NCBI GenBank assembly: GCA_037442745.1
Contig: JBBIPP010000008.1
Span: 690 to 64,689, forward strand
Source: an archaeon
Lineage (GTDB): Archaea; SpSt-1190; DYHY01
Direction: 5' to 3'
DNA: 64,000 nucleotides
The notes under the pieces are model-generated. The model made no database searches, had not been told where the DNA came from, and worked only from the letters and a program-made list of their open reading frames with translations. The position numbers and the translations under genes are program-made. Every line of letters begins with the position of its first letter. Position 1 is the first letter of the stretch. Shown piece after piece: positions 1,750 through 57,886 of this stretch.

Positions 1750-4553
1750 CTTCCTTCCTTGGGCATATCACACTCAAAGTCCGGTTGTCCCAGAAAGGGC
1801 CCGCCGGATTTCAAAGAGGCATAAAATGAAGTTCCTTGTCCGTACGGACCGGGACCTGATATCGGCAAGTGGGAATGAGCAGTAAAGAAATGTAACGCGC
1901 AAGATAAGCGCAACTCACCAATTCATTCTCATGATGACACCGTGTTACTAGGAGCAAAGACGCTGTTAGATGGATTGCTTGGCTCAGAAAGTCGAAGAAG
2001 GGCGTGGCAAGCTGCGATAAGCCCGGGGTAGGTGCATGCAACCTTTGAACCCGGGATCCCTCAATGTGACTTCATGGCCAATAGAAATATTGGTCAGTCC
2101 GAAAGGACGGAGAACGCGGAGAATTGAAACATCTTAGTATCCGCAGGAAAAGAAATCAAAACAGAGATTCTGTGATTAGGGGCGACCGAAAACAGAAGAG
2201 GCCAAACCGAATCCGGCGGGGCAACCCGTTGGAAATGTGGTGTTGTGGGGCCTGGAGCACATCCCAAGTGCAGAGATCAAGTCCACTGGAATGTGGCGCG
2301 ACAAAGGGTGAAAGCCCCGTAATCGTATGCATTAGGGATGATTTCCAGAGTCCCCGAGTAGGGTTGGTCGGTATTCCGGCCCGAATCTGGGAGGCATTAA
2401 CTTCCAAGCCTAAATACTACCTGAGACCGATAGCGGAATAGTAGATTAGTCGAAAGCTGAAAAGAACTCTGAAAAAGAGGGTTCAAAGAGCATGAAATCT
2501 AATAGCCAAAGTCAGCGGCTGCATGAAAGAGTCCGGGCCGAACGCAAGCAAGTCCGGATAGTCGATGTAGCCGCGTCAGTTTAGAATAACGGAGCGGAGA
2601 GTTTTGGATAGTGGCGAGGTTAAGGGGTGTTATCCCCGAAGCCGAAGCGAAAGCAACAAGCACGCAGTACAAGCGAGGTGCGCCGTCATCAAGGCGGGCA
2701 GTCACTACCCAAAGACCTGAAGCTAGGCGATCAAGTCCGGGGCAGGACGAAGTCCGATCAAAAGTCGGATGGAGGTCCGTAGAGATACTACAGTCAAAGT
2801 GTTCTTTTGACCTTGGATTAGTGGCGAAAAACCAATCGAGCCTAGCAATAGCTGGTTCCTAACGAAATATCCCGCAGGATAGTCCCGAAGGAGTGTGGCT
2901 ACCGGGGTAGAGATACTGATCGAAAGTTGCGGATCCGAAAGGATCTAGCTTTCTGTCAAACTCCAAACCTGGTTGCAGCGTAGATTTCGGGAAGCAGGGC
3001 GCATGGGGTAAGCTTGGCGTCCAAGAGGGGAACAACCCAGAGTTAGGTTAAGGTCCTAAAGTGTTAGTTAAGTGTGAAAGGAGCAAGATTGTTTGCATTC
3101 TAAAACAGCCGGGAGGTAGGCTCAGAAGCAGCCATCCTCTAAGAAGTGCGTAAAAGCTTACCGGTCTAGGATGCGAGCGTCGCAGATGGACAGGGCTAAA
3201 CTAACCACCGATACCCAACGCCACGGCCTAGGCCGTGTGCGGTAGTTAGGCAGGTTTGTCGCGCAGAAGCAGGGCTTAAAGGTCCTGTGGAGCGGCATAC
3301 TACGAGAATTCCGCGTTTAGTAGCATCAAAGCCAGGTGAGAATCCTGGTCGCCGAAAGGACAAGGGTTCCTCAGCAATGGTCGTCAGCTGAGGGTTAGTC
3401 GGTCCTAACTCGACCTCTAATACAAGTCGAGGAAAGGGAAACCTGTTAATATTCAGTACCAACTGTACAAGGTTTGAAGCGGGTTCCGGACACTTTTGGA
3501 CAGGCAGAGAGTGACTATCGTCATTTTCAATCGCATAAAACGAGGGAGTAACGTAATGTTGAGAACTCGGAGAAAGCGTTATGGGGTGCGTCGCAAGGTG
3601 CGCTTCTGCTGCGTTCTAGAGTCCGTGAAAAGGGAATCCGATACAAGTGCAGATTGACCGTACCAAGAACCGATACTGGTGTCCTGCCAGAGAATGGTAA
3701 GGCGTGTCAGGGCTAACCACGATAAGGGAAATCGGCAAATTAGCACCGTAACTTCGGGATAAGGTGTGCCTAATTCCGTGCATAACTTGTGCGGTCTTAG
3801 GTCGCAGTGACATGAGGAGCTGGACTGTTTAACAAAAACATATCCGATTGCCAAAGCGGTGACGCTTCGTATAATCGGAGAGGCCTTCCCACTGCCGGTT
3901 CGTCAAACTCGGGTCCAACCGAGCTAAGCGCCGGTGAAGGGAGGGGGTAACTGTAACCCTCTTAAGGTAGCGCAATTCCTTGCCGATTAAATGTCGGCGC
4001 GCATGAAGGCTCAACAAGGTTCCTGCTGTCCCTATTGTGGACCTGGTGAACAAGTTCTCCTAGTGCGGAGACTAGGGACTCCTATCGGGTCACCAAGACC
4101 CCATGGAGCTTTACTGCAGTTTAATCTTGCTTTACGAGGTACGTTACATAGCGTATGTAGGAGAGGCTATGTCCGGTTCTTAGGGATCGGACTACTCGAC
4201 AATGTAACACTACATTCCGTGCCTTGCAAGGCTCTACCTTAACTGGAACAGGATTAGATGGGCAGTTTGGCTGGGGCGGCACCCCGACGAAAAAATATCA
4301 TCGGGGCCCAATGGTGTGCTCATCCGGGTCAGAACTCCGGAGTAGAGTGCAAAGGCAAAAGCACGCCTGATGTCATAGTGATCAACAAACTAAGACAAGT
4401 CGAAAGACGGGCTTAGCGAACCTCAATGTCCCTCTTAATGAGGGCTTGAGATAACAGAAAAGCTACCCTGGGGATAACAGAGTTGTGGCGGGCGAGAGTT
4501 CCCATTGACCCCGCCGTTTGCTGCATCGCTGTCGGCTCGTCCCATCCTGGCTG

Positions 4554-5312
4554 TGCAGTATCCACGGAAACATCAAACGTGTTTCTGAAAGATACTTTAT
4601 CAGCTGTGGAATTGGACAATACAACAGTGCAGACAAAGGCAATAATCAACTCGAAATAAAATATGGGAAAAATTTTACCAGCAAAAAACGCTAGGTAAAG
4701 TTCCATTGAGGGTCTATAAAAATCAAAGAAAGGTGGTTCCAAGGTTGGCTAGCGCCAACAAGAGTTCTCCAAATGCATTAGGGTTAGAGAATTTGAAAAA
4801 GAATTAGTAACAAAAGAAAGAATATGTCATAGCCAAAGGCATAGCCAAAGGCATAGCCAAAGGCATAGCCAAAGGCATAGCCAAAGGCTTATGATGCTAC
4901 ACTTCTTTTGCTCCAAGTACAAAATAATGTACTTCTGTAGTTCTAGTGCTAACGAGAATTCTTGTTTAGCGCTACTAACTAAGGCCAGTAATGGCAACAA
5001 AATGGAACCGCAGTTTTTTTGGTGGATATGGACTTTCTATTTTGACAAAATTAATACTTTGTCTTTACAGAATTGTTCAGTTCCGGCTAAAACGCTGAAG
5101 AGTAATGTTTTCAGAGGCACGAGTTTTCCTTACAAAAACAAATGATGTTAAGAGGTCTTGGTTCAATTCAAGGCACCTCTAGACGTGCATCAAGCCCTTC
5201 TTTCTTCAGAAGAAAGAAGCCCTTGACGGGAAGAAAGAAGTCAAAAGCTTCTTTTTGACCTCGAGGGACTTTTTCTTCGCAAGAAAAAGGGGCTCGTTAC
5301 GTCCCGTGGCTG
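4554..5312 (+). other. Intervening sequence / intron within 23S rRNA domain V (between the A2503-region and U2585-region homologues)
   Basis: LSU conservation stops after 'catcctggctg' (~4553) and resumes at 'caagcagccaagggtaagggtgttcacc...gaacgtcgtgagacag' (~5313). The inserted ~750 nt is AT-richer and has no LSU homology. Imperfect direct repeats of rRNA sequence flank it ('ggctcgtcccatcctggctg' / 'ggctcgttacgtcccgtggctg'). It contains several perfect hairpins (e.g. cttctttcttc/gaagaaagaag) and no intact homing-endonuclease ORF. Confidence 0.6.
4828..4888 (+). repeat. 12-bp tandem repeat (catagccaaagg) x5 inside the 23S intervening sequence
   Basis: Five perfect head-to-tail copies of 'catagccaaagg' read directly from the sequence. 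Confidence 0.9.
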
Positions 5313-5356
5313 CAAGCAGCCAAGGGTAAGGGTGTTCACCTATTAAAGGGGCTCGT

Positions 5357-5390
<34 letters not shown>

Positions 5391-6121
5391 TGCTTACTGG
5401 TAGGAGTGCAGGCAGATTGAAAGGAAAGTGACATTAGTACGAGAGGAACACGTCGCTGGCGCCTCTGGTAGACCGGTTGTCTGATAAGGCATCGCCGGGC
5501 AGCTACGCGCTTGGCCCGTAATGGCTGAAAGCATCTAAGCCAGAAAGGGTCCTTGAAAACGAATCTGCCATTCTGGCAACCCCATGAATTTGGGAGTCCA
5601 GACAAGGCCGCCGCTAAAACAGCGGGTTGATAGAGCAGTGGTGTACATGAAAAGGGCAACCGATTCATTCAGCCAGCTGCTACTAATTGGCCGAGGCTCT
5701 AGTAACACGGTGTTATCATGTCTTGTGCAAGCAAGGGTATCCGCAAGGGTTCTTGTGCTCGCACAAGCGGTTCTCTGTGGACGGACTTTTGAAAGAATCT
5801 CCGCCCACGGACCGGCCGGCCCCTTCGGGGGACGGCCACCATTTTTAACCAAAGGGAACTCGTATGACGGAAGAGATTTTCTTCCGGAAGGAAAAGAAAA
5901 TACGGGTTTGCACTAACAAAGTTCTTCCAAGAATTTTTTGGAGGATTGAGTTTTTTTATTTAGATAGCGATAGTTCTATTGAAATTTGGGGATTTTTCAA
6001 TTGCGGGAAAGCAAGAGAGATGAAAAAGTCAAACTTTGTTTGCAATTACTATTCAAAATAAATAATCTTCATACGAATAAACTTTAGATACCCACTTCTA
6101 TTTCAAATTCTCTGAGAAGAT

Positions 6122-8525: not shown

Positions 8526-9056
8526 ATGCCCGAGAGAGACATTGTCTCTGAACTCTCAATCATTCATCCCGGACAAATCCTCTTCGTTGTCTCGAAGAAT
8601 TATCCGGAAGAAGCTTTCCTCGGAGCGACAAAATTCCTGACAGAGTCAAAGAATTCCTTTGCAATAATACTCTCAATGAAAAAGGACTGGCCGGAGCTTG
8701 CAAGGGCGCTTTCGGACAACAACATCCAAATAAAGAACTTTGCAATAATTGATGCCACCGGAAGGACGAGAACGCCCCGGGGAAGGGGAAATATTGTGTC
8801 GGTCAGGGGACCGGAGAAGCTCGCAACAATAGCACTTTCGCTCACCGGAGCGGTCAGGTCTTCCTCAAACAAAGAGATAATTGTCGTAATTGACTCGGCA
8901 ACCGAGATTTTCCTCCATTCAGACCCCGACCTTTTCAATGAATTCTCAAAGCATTTCTCCTTCCTCGTTAAATCGAGCGGAGGGAAGGGCCTCGTTTTCT
9001 CGGCCGAGCCCCATAAAGAGTTCCTTGAAATTTCCGAGAGGACGGTATATATCTGA
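8526..9056 (+). CDS. hypothetical protein (176 aa)
   Basis: ORF abutting the next gene (stop 2 nt before its ATG). No Walker motif or other recognisable signature. Confidence 0.4.
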   Translation: MPERDIVSELSIIHPGQILFVVSKNYPEEAFLGATKFLTESKNSFAIILSMKKDWPELARALSDNNIQIKNFAIIDATGRTRTPRGRGNIVSVRGPEKLATIALSLTGAVRSSSNKEIIVVIDSATEIFLHSDPDLFNEFSKHFSFLVKSSGGKGLVFSAEPHKEFLEISERTVYI

Positions 9057-14156: not shown

Positions 14157-14873
14157 ATGCCTTCATTTTCATCCTCCCCCAAAATGGCGAACTTGAGAGT
14201 TCTCAGAACAAGGAAAGAGAGCCCGACTTGCAAGTCAATTTACTTCAGAAAGCCCGCTGGCTTTTCCTTCCTCCCGGGACAGTTCATCAATATCCATCTG
14301 GAAATTAACGGAAAGACGGAGATTCGCTCATATACAATTTCAAGCGCTCCGGAAGAAAAATACCTGAGAGTAACTTTTCGGGTAAAAGGAGATTTCACAA
14401 AAGCGCTCTTTCGGACAAGGAAGGGGGTGAAGATTCGCGCAATTGGGCCTCTCGGCAGGTTCATTTTCGACAGGAGAAGATTCAAAAAAAAATCAGTTGT
14501 TTTCATTGCAGGGGGAATAGGAATTGCCGGATTTTCCTCCGCTCTTCGGACAATTGAGAAAAAAGGGGGGCTGAACAGCTCACTTCTCCTCTATAGCGAG
14601 AGGGACGGTGAGGATTTTCCCCTTGAAAGGGAGCTTTTATCCCTCAGGAGGACTAGGACTGTCCTAACATTCACGAAAAGCCCGCCCAGAGGATGGAGAG
14701 GGATGGTAGGAAGAATTGACAGGAAAGCTCTCTCCAATTCCCTCGGAAAGAAGGAAATTTCCAAAGCAGTCTTTTTCGTCTGCGGTTCCGATTCCTTCGT
14801 TACCAACATCAGAAAATGCCTCCTTCTGTTGGGAGTGGGAAAAAAGCGGATAGTTTCCGAAGGTTTCGGCTGA
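14157..14873 (+). CDS. FNR/PyrK-like FAD- and NAD(P)-binding oxidoreductase
   Basis: FAD-binding 'RSYTISS' (RxYS-type) and NAD-binding 'VVFIAGGIGIAGF' motifs. Confidence 0.55.
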   Translation: MPSFSSSPKMANLRVLRTRKESPTCKSIYFRKPAGFSFLPGQFINIHLEINGKTEIRSYTISSAPEEKYLRVTFRVKGDFTKALFRTRKGVKIRAIGPLGRFIFDRRRFKKKSVVFIAGGIGIAGFSSALRTIEKKGGLNSSLLLYSERDGEDFPLERELLSLRRTRTVLTFTKSPPRGWRGMVGRIDRKALSNSLGKKEISKAVFFVCGSDSFVTNIRKCLLLLGVGKKRIVSEGFG

Positions 14874-29264: not shown

Positions 29265-29289
29265 TTGTAAGGGGAGTGCTTGTGCGTAT

Positions 29290-29487
29290 TTATTCGTTTG
29301 GCGTTCCAGAAGACCCGCTTTCCGACCAATTTTCCTCGACGAATTGTTTTATTTCATCGAGATTGTCTAGTATCATCTTCGCTTTCTTCACCCCGAATGT
29401 GAACGGGAACTTGTCGTCCCTTTCGTTTCCAGTTTTCAAGACCAAGACCTTTCTTCCTTTGAACTCGGATATTTCTGCCGGAGCCAT
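29290..29487 (-). CDS. hypothetical small protein (65 aa)
   Basis: Clean ORF upstream of the RM gene. No recognisable motif. Confidence 0.3.
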   Translation of the reverse strand: MAPAEISEFKGRKVLVLKTGNERDDKFPFTFGVKKAKMILDNLDEIKQFVEENWSESGSSGTPNE

Positions 29488-29600
29488 TCCTCTGCCTAGA
29501 ACGCTCCGGTTTTTAAGGGAAAAGAGGAGAATTCCTGTATTCTGCTGGATACTTTGCCAGGAAAAAGAGTTTAAAACTCAAAGCGCTACCCCTAATCAAA

Positions 29601-32319
29601 ATGTCTCTCTCTCTCACAAAATCAGGAGAAGGAAGCCTCCAAACAGCAAATAGTCGAGCTAATTTCTGACTACCGGAAAGAATTTCCGAATGGGCCCCCT
29701 CGGACGCTAAACGAGGAGAGAACGAAGGACTGGATTGACGAGCTTTTCCGCTATCTTGGATGGAACATCAGAAAAGAAGGCAACAAGGAGGAAAAGTCCG
29801 GAAACCAAAAAAGGGTTGATTATGCTTTCAAAATAAACGGCGTAACCCAATTCTTATTGGAAGCAAAAAAGCCGAGCGAAGCCCTAGATGTCCACGCTAA
29901 ACAGGCCTTGGAATACGGATACCAAAACAGCGTTCCCTGGGTCGTTCTTACGAATTTTGAGGAAATCCGGGTTTACAACTCCCAGTATTTCGACAAGGCC
30001 GAAGAAGTCAGACGGCTTTTCAAGCCAATACTCCTCTCCGAAATTCCCGATAGGTTTGAGGACTTGTGGCTTTTTTCAAAACCAGCTTTCCTAGAACGAC
30101 AAATAGACAAGGTTGCCGAGAAATACGGGAAAGTAAAGCCAAAGGAGCCGATAACGAACCTTCTGGCAAAGGATTTAGGGAATTGGCGGACCCTTTTGAC
30201 GAAAAGCATTAGTGAGAGGAAAAAGGAGAACAATCTCCCCGAGAAGCAAGAAGATGCCGAGCTTTTCATTGACGAATGCGTCCAGAGGATTCTTGACAGG
30301 CTCCTTTTCCTGCGAGTTGCGGAAGACCGAGGGTTCGAGGAGGCAATACTCGGCCAGACCCTTCGGAAGTGGGAAGATGAGGGGAAAAAGAGGCTTTTTG
30401 AATATCTCTCGGAAGCTTTTAGGAGAGCTGACGATACCTATAACAGCGGGCTTTTCCAGCCCCACGAATCCGAGAAACTGGAGATAGCCGACAGCGCGCT
30501 TGAAAAAGTCATACGGGAGAGCTACAACAGCCCGAACGGCCTGAAATACAATTTTTCCGCAATAAATGCCGACATTCTTGGAAGCGTTTATGAGCAATAT
30601 CTCTCAATTCTTCTAAAAAAGACCGCCAAAGGAGTAAAGCTAAAGGAGAACCAAGCGCACAGAAAGGAACAGGGGATTTACTATACCCCGACATATATTG
30701 TCGATTATATTGTCAGAAACACTCTCGGAGAGACCCTCAAGGGACGAAGCGTCCAAGAAGCCGATGAGATAAAAGTCCTGGACATGGCCTGCGGAAGTGG
30801 ATCATTTCTTCTGAAAGCATTCGACGTGCTCGAGGAATATCACTCGGAAAAGGACGCAAGCGGGGAAAAACAGGCAAGGCTCGATTTCTCCGAAGCGGAC
30901 GCGAAAACAACGGCAAAGAGGAGGATACTCGAAAACAACATTTATGGCGTTGACCTAGACGAAAAAGCGGTTGAGATTGCCCAGTTGAATCTTCTTCTCA
31001 GGATGGCGGAGAAAAAGGGAAAATTGCCCATTCTCAGAAACAACGTCCAGCACGGGAACTCCCTCATTGACGACAAGGAAGTTTCCAAAGAGGCGTTCGA
31101 ATGGGAGGCGAGATTTCCTAGAATAATAAGGTTCGATTCCGAGAGGAAACTTGCCGATGGCGCAGGGTTCGATGTGATAATAGGAAATCCTCCTTATGGG
31201 GTTGAATTTAGCGAGACTGATAGCTCTTTTCTGAAATCAACATATTCGACTTGCTATGGGAAAGTAAATTCATACCGACTTTTTGTGGAGAATGCTATTC
31301 GTTTGCTCAAACGAGACGGGTTTCTCGGATACATAATACCTAACACCTGGTTGTCAGATAATGACTCCAGCAAATTAAGGCGTCTGCTGTTAGAAACTGT
31401 CAGAATAGACAAAATAGTTATTCTCCCAGAGAGTTTAGATGTTTTCGAAGGAGTTACGCAAGCCACAACAATATTGATTATCAAAAAACAGTCAGGAAAA
31501 GAAAGTAATATATCCTTTTTTTATGAAAAAGAGAAGCGATCTGCGGGGAAACATTTTTTAGGAAAGATATCGCAGAAGGCATTCGCTAAAACACAAGACA
31601 ACAAAATAATTTCAAACCCTTTGATTCTTAAAATACTAGAAAAGATTGAACACGTAGGCACTTCTAGATTAGATAACTTTTTTAGAATAAATCAAGGGGA
31701 AGTAAATCTCACGGTTTTTAAAAAAGCCTTAGGAACAGAGCCGGGAAACGGAATAAATCTTCTTCTGAGAGGAACGGATATTTTCAGATATGGTTACACG
31801 AAGAATTTCTCAAAGGAGGGATATGTAGAAGTAGCCAAGATAAGACGTAACGATTCCGATAAAGAGCGAATTGTTGTGCAGGAGGTTTCAAACATGCAGC
31901 AAACTAGGAGACTGAAAGGTTGCTTAATCGGCACAAGGATAAATTGTGCGCATACTTGCAATTATCTGTATTTGAAGAAAAAAGACGAACCGCAAGAGTT
32001 CTTCCTAGCTTTGATAAATTCCAAACTTCTCGATTTTTATTTTAAATCATATAGCAGTACGAATCACATAAGTGGGGTGGAACTTAGAGCCCTTCCGATA
32101 AAAATTGCCTCTCCAGAAGTACAATCTACAATTATCAAACTAGTAAGCAAAATCCTTGCTCTAAACAAAAAACTGCCCGGCCTAAAGCAGACGAACGAAC
32201 GACAGAAAATAGAGGACGAGATAACGAGAGTCGATGCCGAGATAGACTGCCTCGTATATTCCCTTTACGGCCTGACTGACGAAGAAATCCGCCTTGTCGA
32301 GGAATCCTTCTCGAAATAG
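29601..32319 (+). CDS. Type IIG (MmeI-like) fused restriction endonuclease / N6-adenine methyltransferase, with an out-of-frame 5' end
   Basis: An open frame extends from 29596 with no ATG/GTG/TTG before the TTG at 29857. It encodes an N-terminal PD-(D/E)xK module ('VDYAFKINGVTQFLLEAKK'), followed by a gamma-class MTase ('DMACGSGSFLL', 'IIGNPPYG') and a C-terminal TRD. The ATG at 29601 is in a different frame. One extra TC unit would join ATG 'MSLSLSQNQEKEAS...' to this frame, giving ~906 aa. Confidence 0.7.
29604..29615 (+). repeat. (TC)6 dinucleotide simple-sequence repeat immediately after the ATG of the Type IIG RM gene
   Basis: 'atg tctctctctctc acaaaatcagg' read directly from the sequence. 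Confidence 0.95.
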
Positions 32320-32372
32320 CGGAAAGGCGAACCATCCGAATGGTTAAGCCTGAAACGTTCTCTAGGAAATAA

Positions 32373-32789
32373 ATGCCCCTTGAAAAGACTAAACCTTCTT
32401 TCGAGACTCTCCTGACTGACCTCATTTTGGCGCTCCACCATGTTGCAGTAGACGAGCCCCTGGGAATCCGGGACCAAGGAACATTGGATTTTATTGTAAA
32501 ATCTGCATGCGAAACGGAAGGCTCAAACCTAGACCTTGCGGCCAATCTGCTTTTCAACATAGCCACAAGACATCCGTTTTTTGACGGGAACAAAAGGACC
32601 GCAACACTATCTGCCCTTACAATCCTGCTCTCAGGGAATCTTTCAGAACCGACACAAGATGCGCTTGCGGAATTCTTAAAGCTAAAGGCCGAAAACGAGT
32701 ATGAAAAGTTCATTCTGGATGTTGCAAAATACAGCAAGACAGAAAGCCAAGTAAGAGACTATTTGAAAAGGAGGTTTAATAAGGAATGA
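32373..32789 (+). CDS. Doc/Fic-family toxin-like protein
   Basis: Fic/Doc active-site motif 'HPFFDGNKRTA'. 138 aa. Begins 53 bp after the RM gene. Confidence 0.75.
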   Translation: MPLEKTKPSFETLLTDLILALHHVAVDEPLGIRDQGTLDFIVKSACETEGSNLDLAANLLFNIATRHPFFDGNKRTATLSALTILLSGNLSEPTQDALAEFLKLKAENEYEKFILDVAKYSKTESQVRDYLKRRFNKE

Positions 32790-32962
32790 CTTCCCAAGAA
32801 ATACGTGCCATGCCAAAGAAGACAGGCAAAGATTCCTTCCGCAGAATGCTCGAAGTTCGTCTTGAAAAGGAAAGCCCATCTCAAATAACTAAAAGCATTT
32901 CTGAACAGGCCGAACGGATAAAGAAAGCCAACAAGCGCCTCTTCGACCGTCTGGCAAAGCTC
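32786..32962 (+). CDS. small ORF (58 aa) translationally coupled to Doc via ATGA overlap
   Basis: 'ggaATGAcu': its ATG overlaps the Doc TGA. Basic/helical peptide 'MTSQEIRAMPKKTGKDSFRRMLEVRLEKESPSQITKSISEQAERIKKANKRLFDRLAKL'. Below the 60-aa cutoff of the ORF track. Confidence 0.35.
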
Positions 32963-32977
32963 TGAGTCTGCCCTGAA

Positions 32978-57689: not shown

Positions 57690-57805
57690 GTGGTGGGCCG
57701 GGTGGTTGAGCATCGGAAATCGGCGAAATCCGAGGCCCAATAAAACTGGTGGTGGGCCGGGTGGTTGAGCATCGGAAATCGGCGAAATCCGAGGCCCAAT
57801 AAAAC
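57690..57805 (-). repeat. 2 x 58-bp tandem repeat, each unit carrying a copy of the tRNA-Lys 3' end (CCACCCGGCCCACCA)
   Basis: Units at 57690-57747 and 57748-57805 are identical. Each begins (forward) with 'tggtgggccgggtgg', the same 15 nt that end tRNA-Lys including its encoded CCA. The third copy is the tRNA itself. Confidence 0.85.
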
Positions 57806-57808
57806 TGG

Positions 57809-57886
57809 TGGTGGGCCGGGTGGGATTTGAACCCACGACCCAAAGATTAAGAGTCTTTTGCTCTAACCATGCTGAGCTACCGGCCC
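57809..57886 (-). tRNA. tRNA-Lys (anticodon CTT) with genomically encoded CCA
   Basis: Reverse complement GGGCCGG-ua-GCUC-AGCAUGGUU-AGAGC-a-AAAGA-CUCUUAA-UCUUU-GGGUC-GUGGG-UUCAAAU-CCCAC-CCGGCCC-A-CCA. Confidence 0.85.

Follow-up and report, generated by a model that had tools for sequence, protein, structure and literature searches.

A TC repeat at codon 2 of an archaeal Type IIG restriction–modification gene: a candidate phase-variation switch in its OFF state

In a 64,000-nucleotide (nt) stretch of DNA from an archaeon (GenBank assembly GCA_037442745.1, contig JBBIPP010000008.1, positions 690 to 64,689 of the forward strand; 'the window' in what follows), the interval between topA and serS carries a gene for a predicted Type IIG restriction–modification (RM) enzyme, in which nuclease and DNA-methyltransferase (MTase) occupy one polypeptide chain. 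The gene begins with an ATG, and the ATG is followed at once by six TC dinucleotides. In the allele that was sequenced, this tract leaves the ATG out of frame with the 900 codons downstream, and it is the possibility that changes in tract length switch the enzyme on and off that concerns us here. The main features of the gene are these, in window coordinates:

29562–29576, + strand: archaeal promoter, comprising a purine-rich element, AAAAAGAG (29562–29569), that resembles a transcription factor B recognition element, and the TATA box TTTAAAA (29570–29576)
29601–29603, + strand: ATG, the true start codon of the RM gene, as shown by promoter spacing, the N-termini of homologues and conservation in a sister lineage
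29604–29615, + strand: (TC)6 simple sequence repeat (SSR), codons 2–5, encoding Ser-Leu repeats and setting the frame; OFF at present
29601–29669, + strand: open reading frame (ORF) of the present allele, 22 codons, MSLSLTKSGEGSLQTANSRANF, ending at TGA 29667–29669 (23 codons including the stop)
29617–32319, + strand: Type IIG gene body, intact, in the +1 frame; 900 codons and TAG 32317–32319
29713–29982, + strand: N-terminal PD-(D/E)XK nuclease core, with E at 29713–29715, D at 29818–29820, E at 29860–29862 and K at 29866–29868
29857–29859, + strand: TTG, the earliest possible start of the long frame and the start of the 820-amino acid (aa) ORF of the public annotation (P0001); probably not the real start
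30781–31446, + strand: gamma-class N6-adenine MTase core, with a Pfam Eco57I match at 30934–31446
31762–32100, + strand: TaqI_C-like target recognition domain (TaqI_C, 29.9 bits against a cut-off of 26.5)

The bases that directly follow the ATG are exactly TCTCTCTCTCTC, and the frame that they set ends after 23 codons, as the first-pass annotation of this DNA had reported. The 22-aa peptide so encoded is not conserved in the sister lineage described below, where its counterpart is MSLSLSLSLKTRRRNLLKRK. The +1 frame, by contrast, is free of stops from 29596 to the TAG at 32317–32319, and we confirm the earlier reading that no ATG, GTG or TTG occurs in it before the TTG at 29857. This TTG encodes the second L of FLLEAKK, in the middle of the nuclease motif, and initiation there loses D74 of the D-x13-E-A-K signature (VDYAFKINGVTQFLLEAKK). 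When the gene was rebuilt in silico with 0 to 15 TC units, tracts of 1, 4, 7, 10 and 13 units gave proteins of 902–910 aa, and every other count gave peptides of 14–28 aa. The (TC)7 product, MSLSLSQNQEKEAS..., is 906 aa long; the rebuild thus upholds the earlier proposal that (TC)7, (TC)4 or (TC)10 would fuse the ATG to an enzyme of about this size. Only in the frame-corrected gene is the nuclease domain linked to the start codon.

Signals upstream of the gene single out the same ATG. The TTTAAAA box lies 31 to 25 nt before it. A TATA-like hexamer that begins between −38 and −26 precedes 17 of the window's 30 long ORFs, where a rate of 2.4% would be expected (binomial P 3e-20). The RM box, at −31, matches this spacing, which suggests that the transcript is leaderless or near-leaderless, as most mRNAs in this organism appear to be. 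The promoter core, AAAAGAGTTTAAAAC, is kept in the sister lineage. ATG 29601 also lines up, within a few residues, with the N-termini of 119 homologues, which typically read M-x(2-6)-KE-x-AK. These several lines of sequence evidence identify it as the true start of the RM gene. That the host is an archaeon, as had been supposed, is borne out by the archaeal 16S and 23S rRNA genes and the archaeal-type topA of the window. Its TopA is ~50% identical to those of metagenome-assembled genomes (MAGs) of Aenigmatarchaeota, Woesearchaeota and Nanoarchaeota (DPANN); closer archaeal MAGs reach 65–85%.

The identity of the predicted product as a fused Type IIG RM enzyme is secure at the level of sequence profiles and modeled fold. 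The earlier suggestion of an N-terminal nuclease joined to a methylase holds up well, for HSDR_N, Eco57I, TaqI_C and the PADLOC model REase_MTase_IIG are all matched. HSDR_N (34.1 bits; cut-off 25.1) spans 29797–29982. The residues E39...D74-x13-E88-x-K90 are invariant, or nearly so, across 33 family members, and the nuclease core is predicted to fold as helix-strand-strand-strand-helix-strand in an AlphaFold2 model built from the 33-sequence alignment (mean predicted local distance difference test score 82.9). In the MTase, motif I (DMACGSGSF, 30781–30807) comes ahead of motif IV (NPPY, 31186–31197), and the strongest Pfam match is Eco57I, at 134 bits, followed by N6_Mtase at 104.7. The best PADLOC model, REase_MTase_IIG PDLC03604, covers residues 7–654 with 359 bits (E 1e-107). 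Structural comparison with Foldseek matches the methylase and specificity part to CamA, M.TaqI and M.BseCI, and the full-length fold to BpuSI (3S1S, E 3.6e-18), MmeI (5HR4, 1.4e-17) and PglX/BrxX (8C45, 9e-22). These last three share the domain order of the window enzyme—N-terminal PD-ExK nuclease, helical connector, gamma-class methylase and C-terminal specificity domain—at a sequence identity of only 12–15%; in PglX, unlike the window enzyme, the PD-ExK nuclease is absent or inactive.

The description 'MmeI-like', which the locus had been given at first, is therefore apt for the architecture but not for the sequence. Eco57I is the strongest match, MmeI_Mtase is far weaker (35.2 bits; cut-off 27), and MmeI_N falls just short of its cut-off (26.8 bits against 27). 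Neither MmeI nor BpuSI was retrieved by phmmer against PDB sequences, and the similarity in fold to MmeI is moderate (template modeling score 0.44–0.51). PglX, of the bacteriophage exclusion (BREX) systems, had also been raised as a comparison; we rejected this identity on a score of 129 bits against a cut-off of 500 for NF033452 and on the lack of BREX genes nearby, the neighbors of the RM gene being topA, a 65-aa ORF, doc and serS. Other named families likewise stayed far under their cut-offs.

Homologues of ~900 aa number in the thousands in bacteria and archaea; the closest are 45–57% identical, and the named ones among these come from DPANN-type MAGs. Apart from its frame, the window gene is intact. 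All 78 columns that are invariant across the 33-member alignment, E39, D74, E88 and K90 included, are kept in its protein, and the frameshift at the TC tract is the sole lesion of the gene. The repeat itself is not a family trait. No repeat is found at the start of the gene in the genome loci of 80 homologues, or at the N-terminus of any of 119 homologous proteins, which marks the Ser-Leu tract as a lineage-specific addition. The two closest homologues begin ATG TTG TCC GAG and TTG TCT GAA, with no proto-repeat. The tract lengthens the protein by ~4 residues, ahead of the first helix.

Two bacterial homologues are accompanied by repeats of other kinds. The gene of a Lutibacter MAG contains an A16 run (L078, 4028–4043), and that of a Paludibacter MAG has four copies of the heptamer AATCACT ~180 nt ahead of it (L038, 2794–2821). 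These may be independent cases of repeat-associated RM genes.

Repeats of this sort are rare in the DNA concerned. Dinucleotide repeats that reach 5 units occur nowhere but at this site, either in the 64-kb window or in the window together with ~86 kb from loci of five relatives (~150 kb of clade DNA in all). Under a first-order Markov model, 0.06 tracts of any (XY)6 are expected by chance per 64 kb, and 0.009 of TC. Dinucleotide repeats of at least 6 units were likewise absent from 604 kb taken from 80 unrelated homologue loci. The TC tract exceeds chance expectation and is unlikely to be a product of chance. Elsewhere in the window, the ORF at 8526–9056 opens ATG CCC GAG AGA GAC, with (GA)4 at codons 3–5 (8526–8542), too short to mean much alone.

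The most informative comparison is with a sister lineage represented by two contigs from different samples (ENA ERZ27245471 k141_98917 and JGI 3300010293 Ga0116204_1002539). Its TopA is 85% identical to that of the window (77% at the nt level) and its gene order is the same, but its contigs have no RM gene between the small ORF on the topA side and doc. What they keep, at the same site and in both assemblies, is the promoter core and the ATG, with a perfect (TC)10 and then ACTC behind it. Beyond the tract comes a remnant of the RM gene, 112 nt of 5' coding sequence that is 81% identical to the window and runs directly into the gene's final ~36 nt. The junction falls between two short matching sequences, whose places in the window are:

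29722–29727, + strand: ACGAAG, the 5' microhomology of the sister deletion
32279–32284, + strand: ACGAAG, the 3' microhomology of the sister deletion

The sister thus lost ~2.55 kb of gene body by deletion between these microhomologies. The remnant is as diverged as its neighbors (topA 77% and serS 85% identical in nt), which points to vertical inheritance. Since promoter, ATG and perfect tract are shared, the tract predates the split of the two lineages, and its length has changed since then by at least 4 units. The flanks of the tract site are 74–85% identical between the lineages; although these flanks have changed at about 1 site in 5, the tract is perfect in both, and the chance of finding 12 positions unchanged is ~0.08. 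Between the tract and the deletion junction lie 37 codons, for which the ratio of non-synonymous to synonymous substitution rates (dN/dS) is 0.13, with dS 0.79 (P ~1e-3 or less against neutrality). No other start reaches these codons, so they must have been translated from the ATG, with the tract in frame, during most of the divergence. The comparison shows that the TC tract is genuine, that it was already present in the common ancestor and that its length varies; it also implies that the two lineages had ON alleles over most of their history.

Two alternatives would dispense with an OFF state. The first is that (TC)6 is an artefact of sequencing or assembly, the true count being (TC)7 and the gene simply intact. 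Repeats are prone to error, and the two assemblies of this population may share reads. The second of these, an independent Logan assembly of run SRR11582162, also has (TC)6 and matches the window at 100% identity across 8,463 nt; an identity of that extent suggests the same reads put together by a different assembler, a confirmation of the assembly rather than a second population. Agreement between two assemblers nevertheless speaks against an artefact. So do the full-length neighboring genes and an A9 run (14484–14492) that lies within an uninterrupted ORF of 238 aa; by these signs the assembly does not look indel-prone. Short-read accuracy comfortably covers a dinucleotide tract of 12 nt, and the (TC)10 of the sister was assembled alike from two different samples. 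We regard an artefact as very improbable indeed.

The second alternative is that the enzyme, or a part of it, is made despite (TC)6, either as a nuclease-less methylase begun at TTG 29857 or through recoding by one UC unit. The 820-aa ORF is certainly present, annotation pipelines call it, and the first-pass annotation had supposed that such an N-truncated methylase is all the cell could express. That supposition fares poorly, and we rejected TTG 29857 as a real start: it has neither a TATA-like box at the spacing usual in this genome nor a sequence like that of Shine and Dalgarno, and the annotated ORF seems merely to begin at the first possible start codon. A protein begun there would also lack the catalytic D of the nuclease, and the dN/dS value shows the region upstream of the TTG to be protein-coding. 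Recoding is a subtler proposal. A dinucleotide run permits perfect re-pairing after a shift of 2 nt, (UC)6 occupies +4 to +15 of the mRNA, where transcript or ribosome might realign, and reiterative transcription in the initially transcribed region, where this run lies, is known in bacteria. We found no stimulatory element at the locus, and know of none for (UC)n recoding. By either route, expression from the present allele seems to us improbable.

We favor instead, with a probability of about 0.5, the interpretation that the (TC)n tract is hypermutable and acts as an on/off phase-variation switch of the Type IIG gene. Slipped-strand mispairing at replication would add or remove TC units in a tract that directly follows the 5'-terminal AUG of a leaderless mRNA for a single-chain Type IIG enzyme. 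Of the possible lengths, just one in three (1, 4, 7, 10... units) would connect the AUG to the 900-codon body. With (TC)6, the gene would be OFF: ribosomes starting at the AUG would make the 22-aa peptide and stop, and the cell would have neither activity. The enzyme would return if the tract grew by one unit or shrank by two. Because nuclease and methylase share one polypeptide, they would be switched together and self-restriction would be avoided. The reading carries two further suppositions. One is that slippage within a population happens often enough, and is undone readily enough, for the term phase variation to apply; the other is that selection maintains the switch, perhaps through a trade-off between viral defense and DNA uptake, or through autoimmunity.

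Several of the usual marks of phase variation are present. RM genes are treated operationally as potentially phase-variable when the ORF contains at least 5 dinucleotide units (PMC5909438, PMC7383803). The repeat here is non-triplet and lies within the ORF, with 6 units in the window and 10 in the sister; a change of unit toggles full-length and truncated products of an otherwise intact gene; and the count differs, 6 versus 10, at an orthologous site, albeit between lineages rather than strains of one species. What has not been found is the coexistence of ON and OFF alleles with reversible switching, for only OFF alleles have come to light. The candidate switch put forward in the first pass is therefore supported as to tract length, frame toggle and intact gene, and now also by the differing unit number of the sister, and falls short as to an ON allele.

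This shortfall is the chief of the points that weigh against a switch. Every allele seen is OFF, in the four contigs that carry the locus of the window population and in the two of the sister. All four of the former encode the 820-aa OFF call, the three besides the window being known only as non-fusing, and the P0001 cluster has one member. An exact look-up of the 906-aa (TC)7 protein among ~15 billion public proteins found nothing, and a homology search with it as query returned, apart from P0001, no protein more than 57% identical. A scan of JGI metagenomes for the exact flanks separated by 0 to 30 nt of any sequence gave 0 matches; with flanks common to both lineages it gave only the sister contig already known; and a scan of viral contigs gave no further allele, only one unrelated chance match with (TC)4. 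In addition, (TC)6 is at the short end of the tracts known to switch. The sister gene was destroyed by deletion, which implies that selection for the enzyme in this clade is not strong. The difference between 6 and 10 units, at ~20% divergence, could stem from very rare slippage.

Several of these points suit an early pseudogene, our main rival explanation, in which a single, recent and effectively irreversible slippage at a mutational hot spot has struck an RM gene that the clade is losing, and the tract is a relic. This differs from a switch only in rate and reversibility. All alleles seen are OFF, with no ON allele in public data, and the sister has lost the gene body through microhomology. 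The setting is agreeable to gene loss as well. The gap between serS and topA (29265–32977 in the window) is a variable cargo site in the clade: it holds the RM gene and doc in the window, an RM remnant and doc in the sister (L083/L084), nothing in L085 and L088, a 2-hydroxyacid dehydrogenase gene in L087, and NUDIX and helix-turn-helix genes in L089. Neither the RM gene nor doc occurs in a third lineage (TopA 84%), the RM gene is missing from the site in more distant relatives too, and no intact RM orthologue adjoins topA in any of the relatives' serS–topA loci compared. Other findings speak against a gene long dead. There is no second lesion across 900 codons, and all the invariant residues are kept; the tract is perfect in both lineages despite flanks that differ by ~19–26%; and the dN/dS of 0.13, in codons that no other start precedes, speaks of an ATG long in use with its tract in frame, in a period when tract length changed. 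Weighing both sides, we consider an early pseudogene less likely than a switch, but a serious contender.

Also within the cargo site, directly upstream of topA, is a 65-aa ORF on the − strand (29290–29487) that has its own TATA box and no match among Pfam or PADLOC families. It is conserved in L083/L084 and L085, at 61–65 aa, and shares 83% nt identity with its L083 counterpart.

The mechanism proposed for the tract is not in itself new. In bacteria adapted to a host, phase variation through slippage of repeats has a central place in bet-hedging, and RM genes are classic targets of it; in archaea, so far as we know, its use has hardly been documented. Dinucleotide tracts much like this one, of CT or TC and ~6–10 units, set the frame at the 5' end of the oipA/hopH, hopZ and sabA genes of Helicobacter pylori. 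They too lie at the extreme 5' coding end and encode Ser-Leu-type residues, but the genes are for surface proteins of a bacterial pathogen, the tracts fall within the signal peptide, and the mRNAs are not leaderless. As to the enzyme, the nearest parallel is Cj0031 of Campylobacter jejuni NCTC11168, a proven phase-variable Type IIG enzyme that switches in vitro and in vivo (PMC4889913). Both are single-chain Type IIG proteins whose genes contain a simple repeat in which indels shift the frame, and in Cj0031 such indels turn methylation (and restriction) ON and OFF together. The Cj0031 repeat is a G9 homopolymer in mid-gene, at nt 2573 of 3732, whereas ours is (TC)n at codon 2; the sequences are not close; and switching has been shown for the bacterial gene, whereas the archaeal one is a candidate of which only OFF alleles have been seen. 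Repeats also occur in the Type III mod and Type I hsd genes of phasevarions, and GA[n] tracts in mod genes of Mycoplasma (PMC5909438, PMC7383803). These are in-ORF repeats judged by the same length criterion, and repeat variation among relatives is taken there as support; they belong to other RM types, with separate mod/res or hsd subunits, unlike the single chain in the window.

What would be new, if the tract is a switch, is the domain of the host and the context: a DPANN-like archaeon, and a tract at codon 2 of a leaderless mRNA. Text searches of the two surveys of SSR-bearing RM genes in REBASE found no mention of archaea (PMC5909438, PMC7383803), and a review of 2025 places the extension of phase-variable loci to archaea among future work (PMC11868660). 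Both surveys took in only full-length (ON) annotated genes, so that OFF alleles were excluded by design (PMC5909438, PMC7383803). Surveys limited in this way overlook OFF alleles, which automatic annotation turns into shorter 'methylase' ORFs, here one of 820 aa beginning at an arbitrary TTG. We would put forward, tentatively and at somewhat less than even odds, that the locus is the first documented SSR contingency locus in Archaea, a long-kept (TC)n that stochastically switches a Type IIG enzyme and possibly also the doc module described below and the N6-methyladenine methylome. An archaeon with a small genome, of DPANN type, would then be hedging viral defense against openness to foreign DNA. 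The locus offers a concrete and testable case, with a defined tract, a defined ON length and an intact enzyme, and the neutral (TC)10 remnant of the sister can act as an internal gauge of the slippage rate.

Downstream of the RM gene lies a short pair of genes that may share its promoter:

32373–32965, + strand: doc/Fic toxin gene (32373–32789; Pfam Fic, TIGR01550 DOC_P1) and an overlapping 59-aa ORF (32786–32965)

The start of the 59-aa ORF overlaps the stop of doc (ATGA), and both are retained behind the RM remnant of the sister. No TATA-like box precedes doc, and no phd-like antitoxin gene occurs upstream of it. The two are probably co-transcribed from the RM promoter, and could form a toxin–antitoxin module of reversed order driven by it. 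In that case the OFF allele, with its premature termination, might influence expression of the module too.

Two further repeats in the window lie far from the RM locus. The 23S rRNA match, at 1946–5705, is 3,760 nt long against a model of 2,987 nt, and so has ~770 nt of extra sequence. Within it, at 4828–4888, is a perfect tandem repeat of 12 nt, CATAGCCAAAGG, in 5.1 copies. No convincing ORF, such as that of a homing endonuclease, was found at 4300–5400 of this match; the extra sequence may be an rRNA intron or an expansion segment. The other repeat, a perfect tandem array of 59 nt in 2.3 copies (57690–57886), adjoins the gene for tRNA-Lys(CTT). Each of its units opens with 16 nt of the 3' end of that tRNA (GTGGTGGGCCGGGTGG), and the array resembles the stacked scars that integration events leave at att sites.

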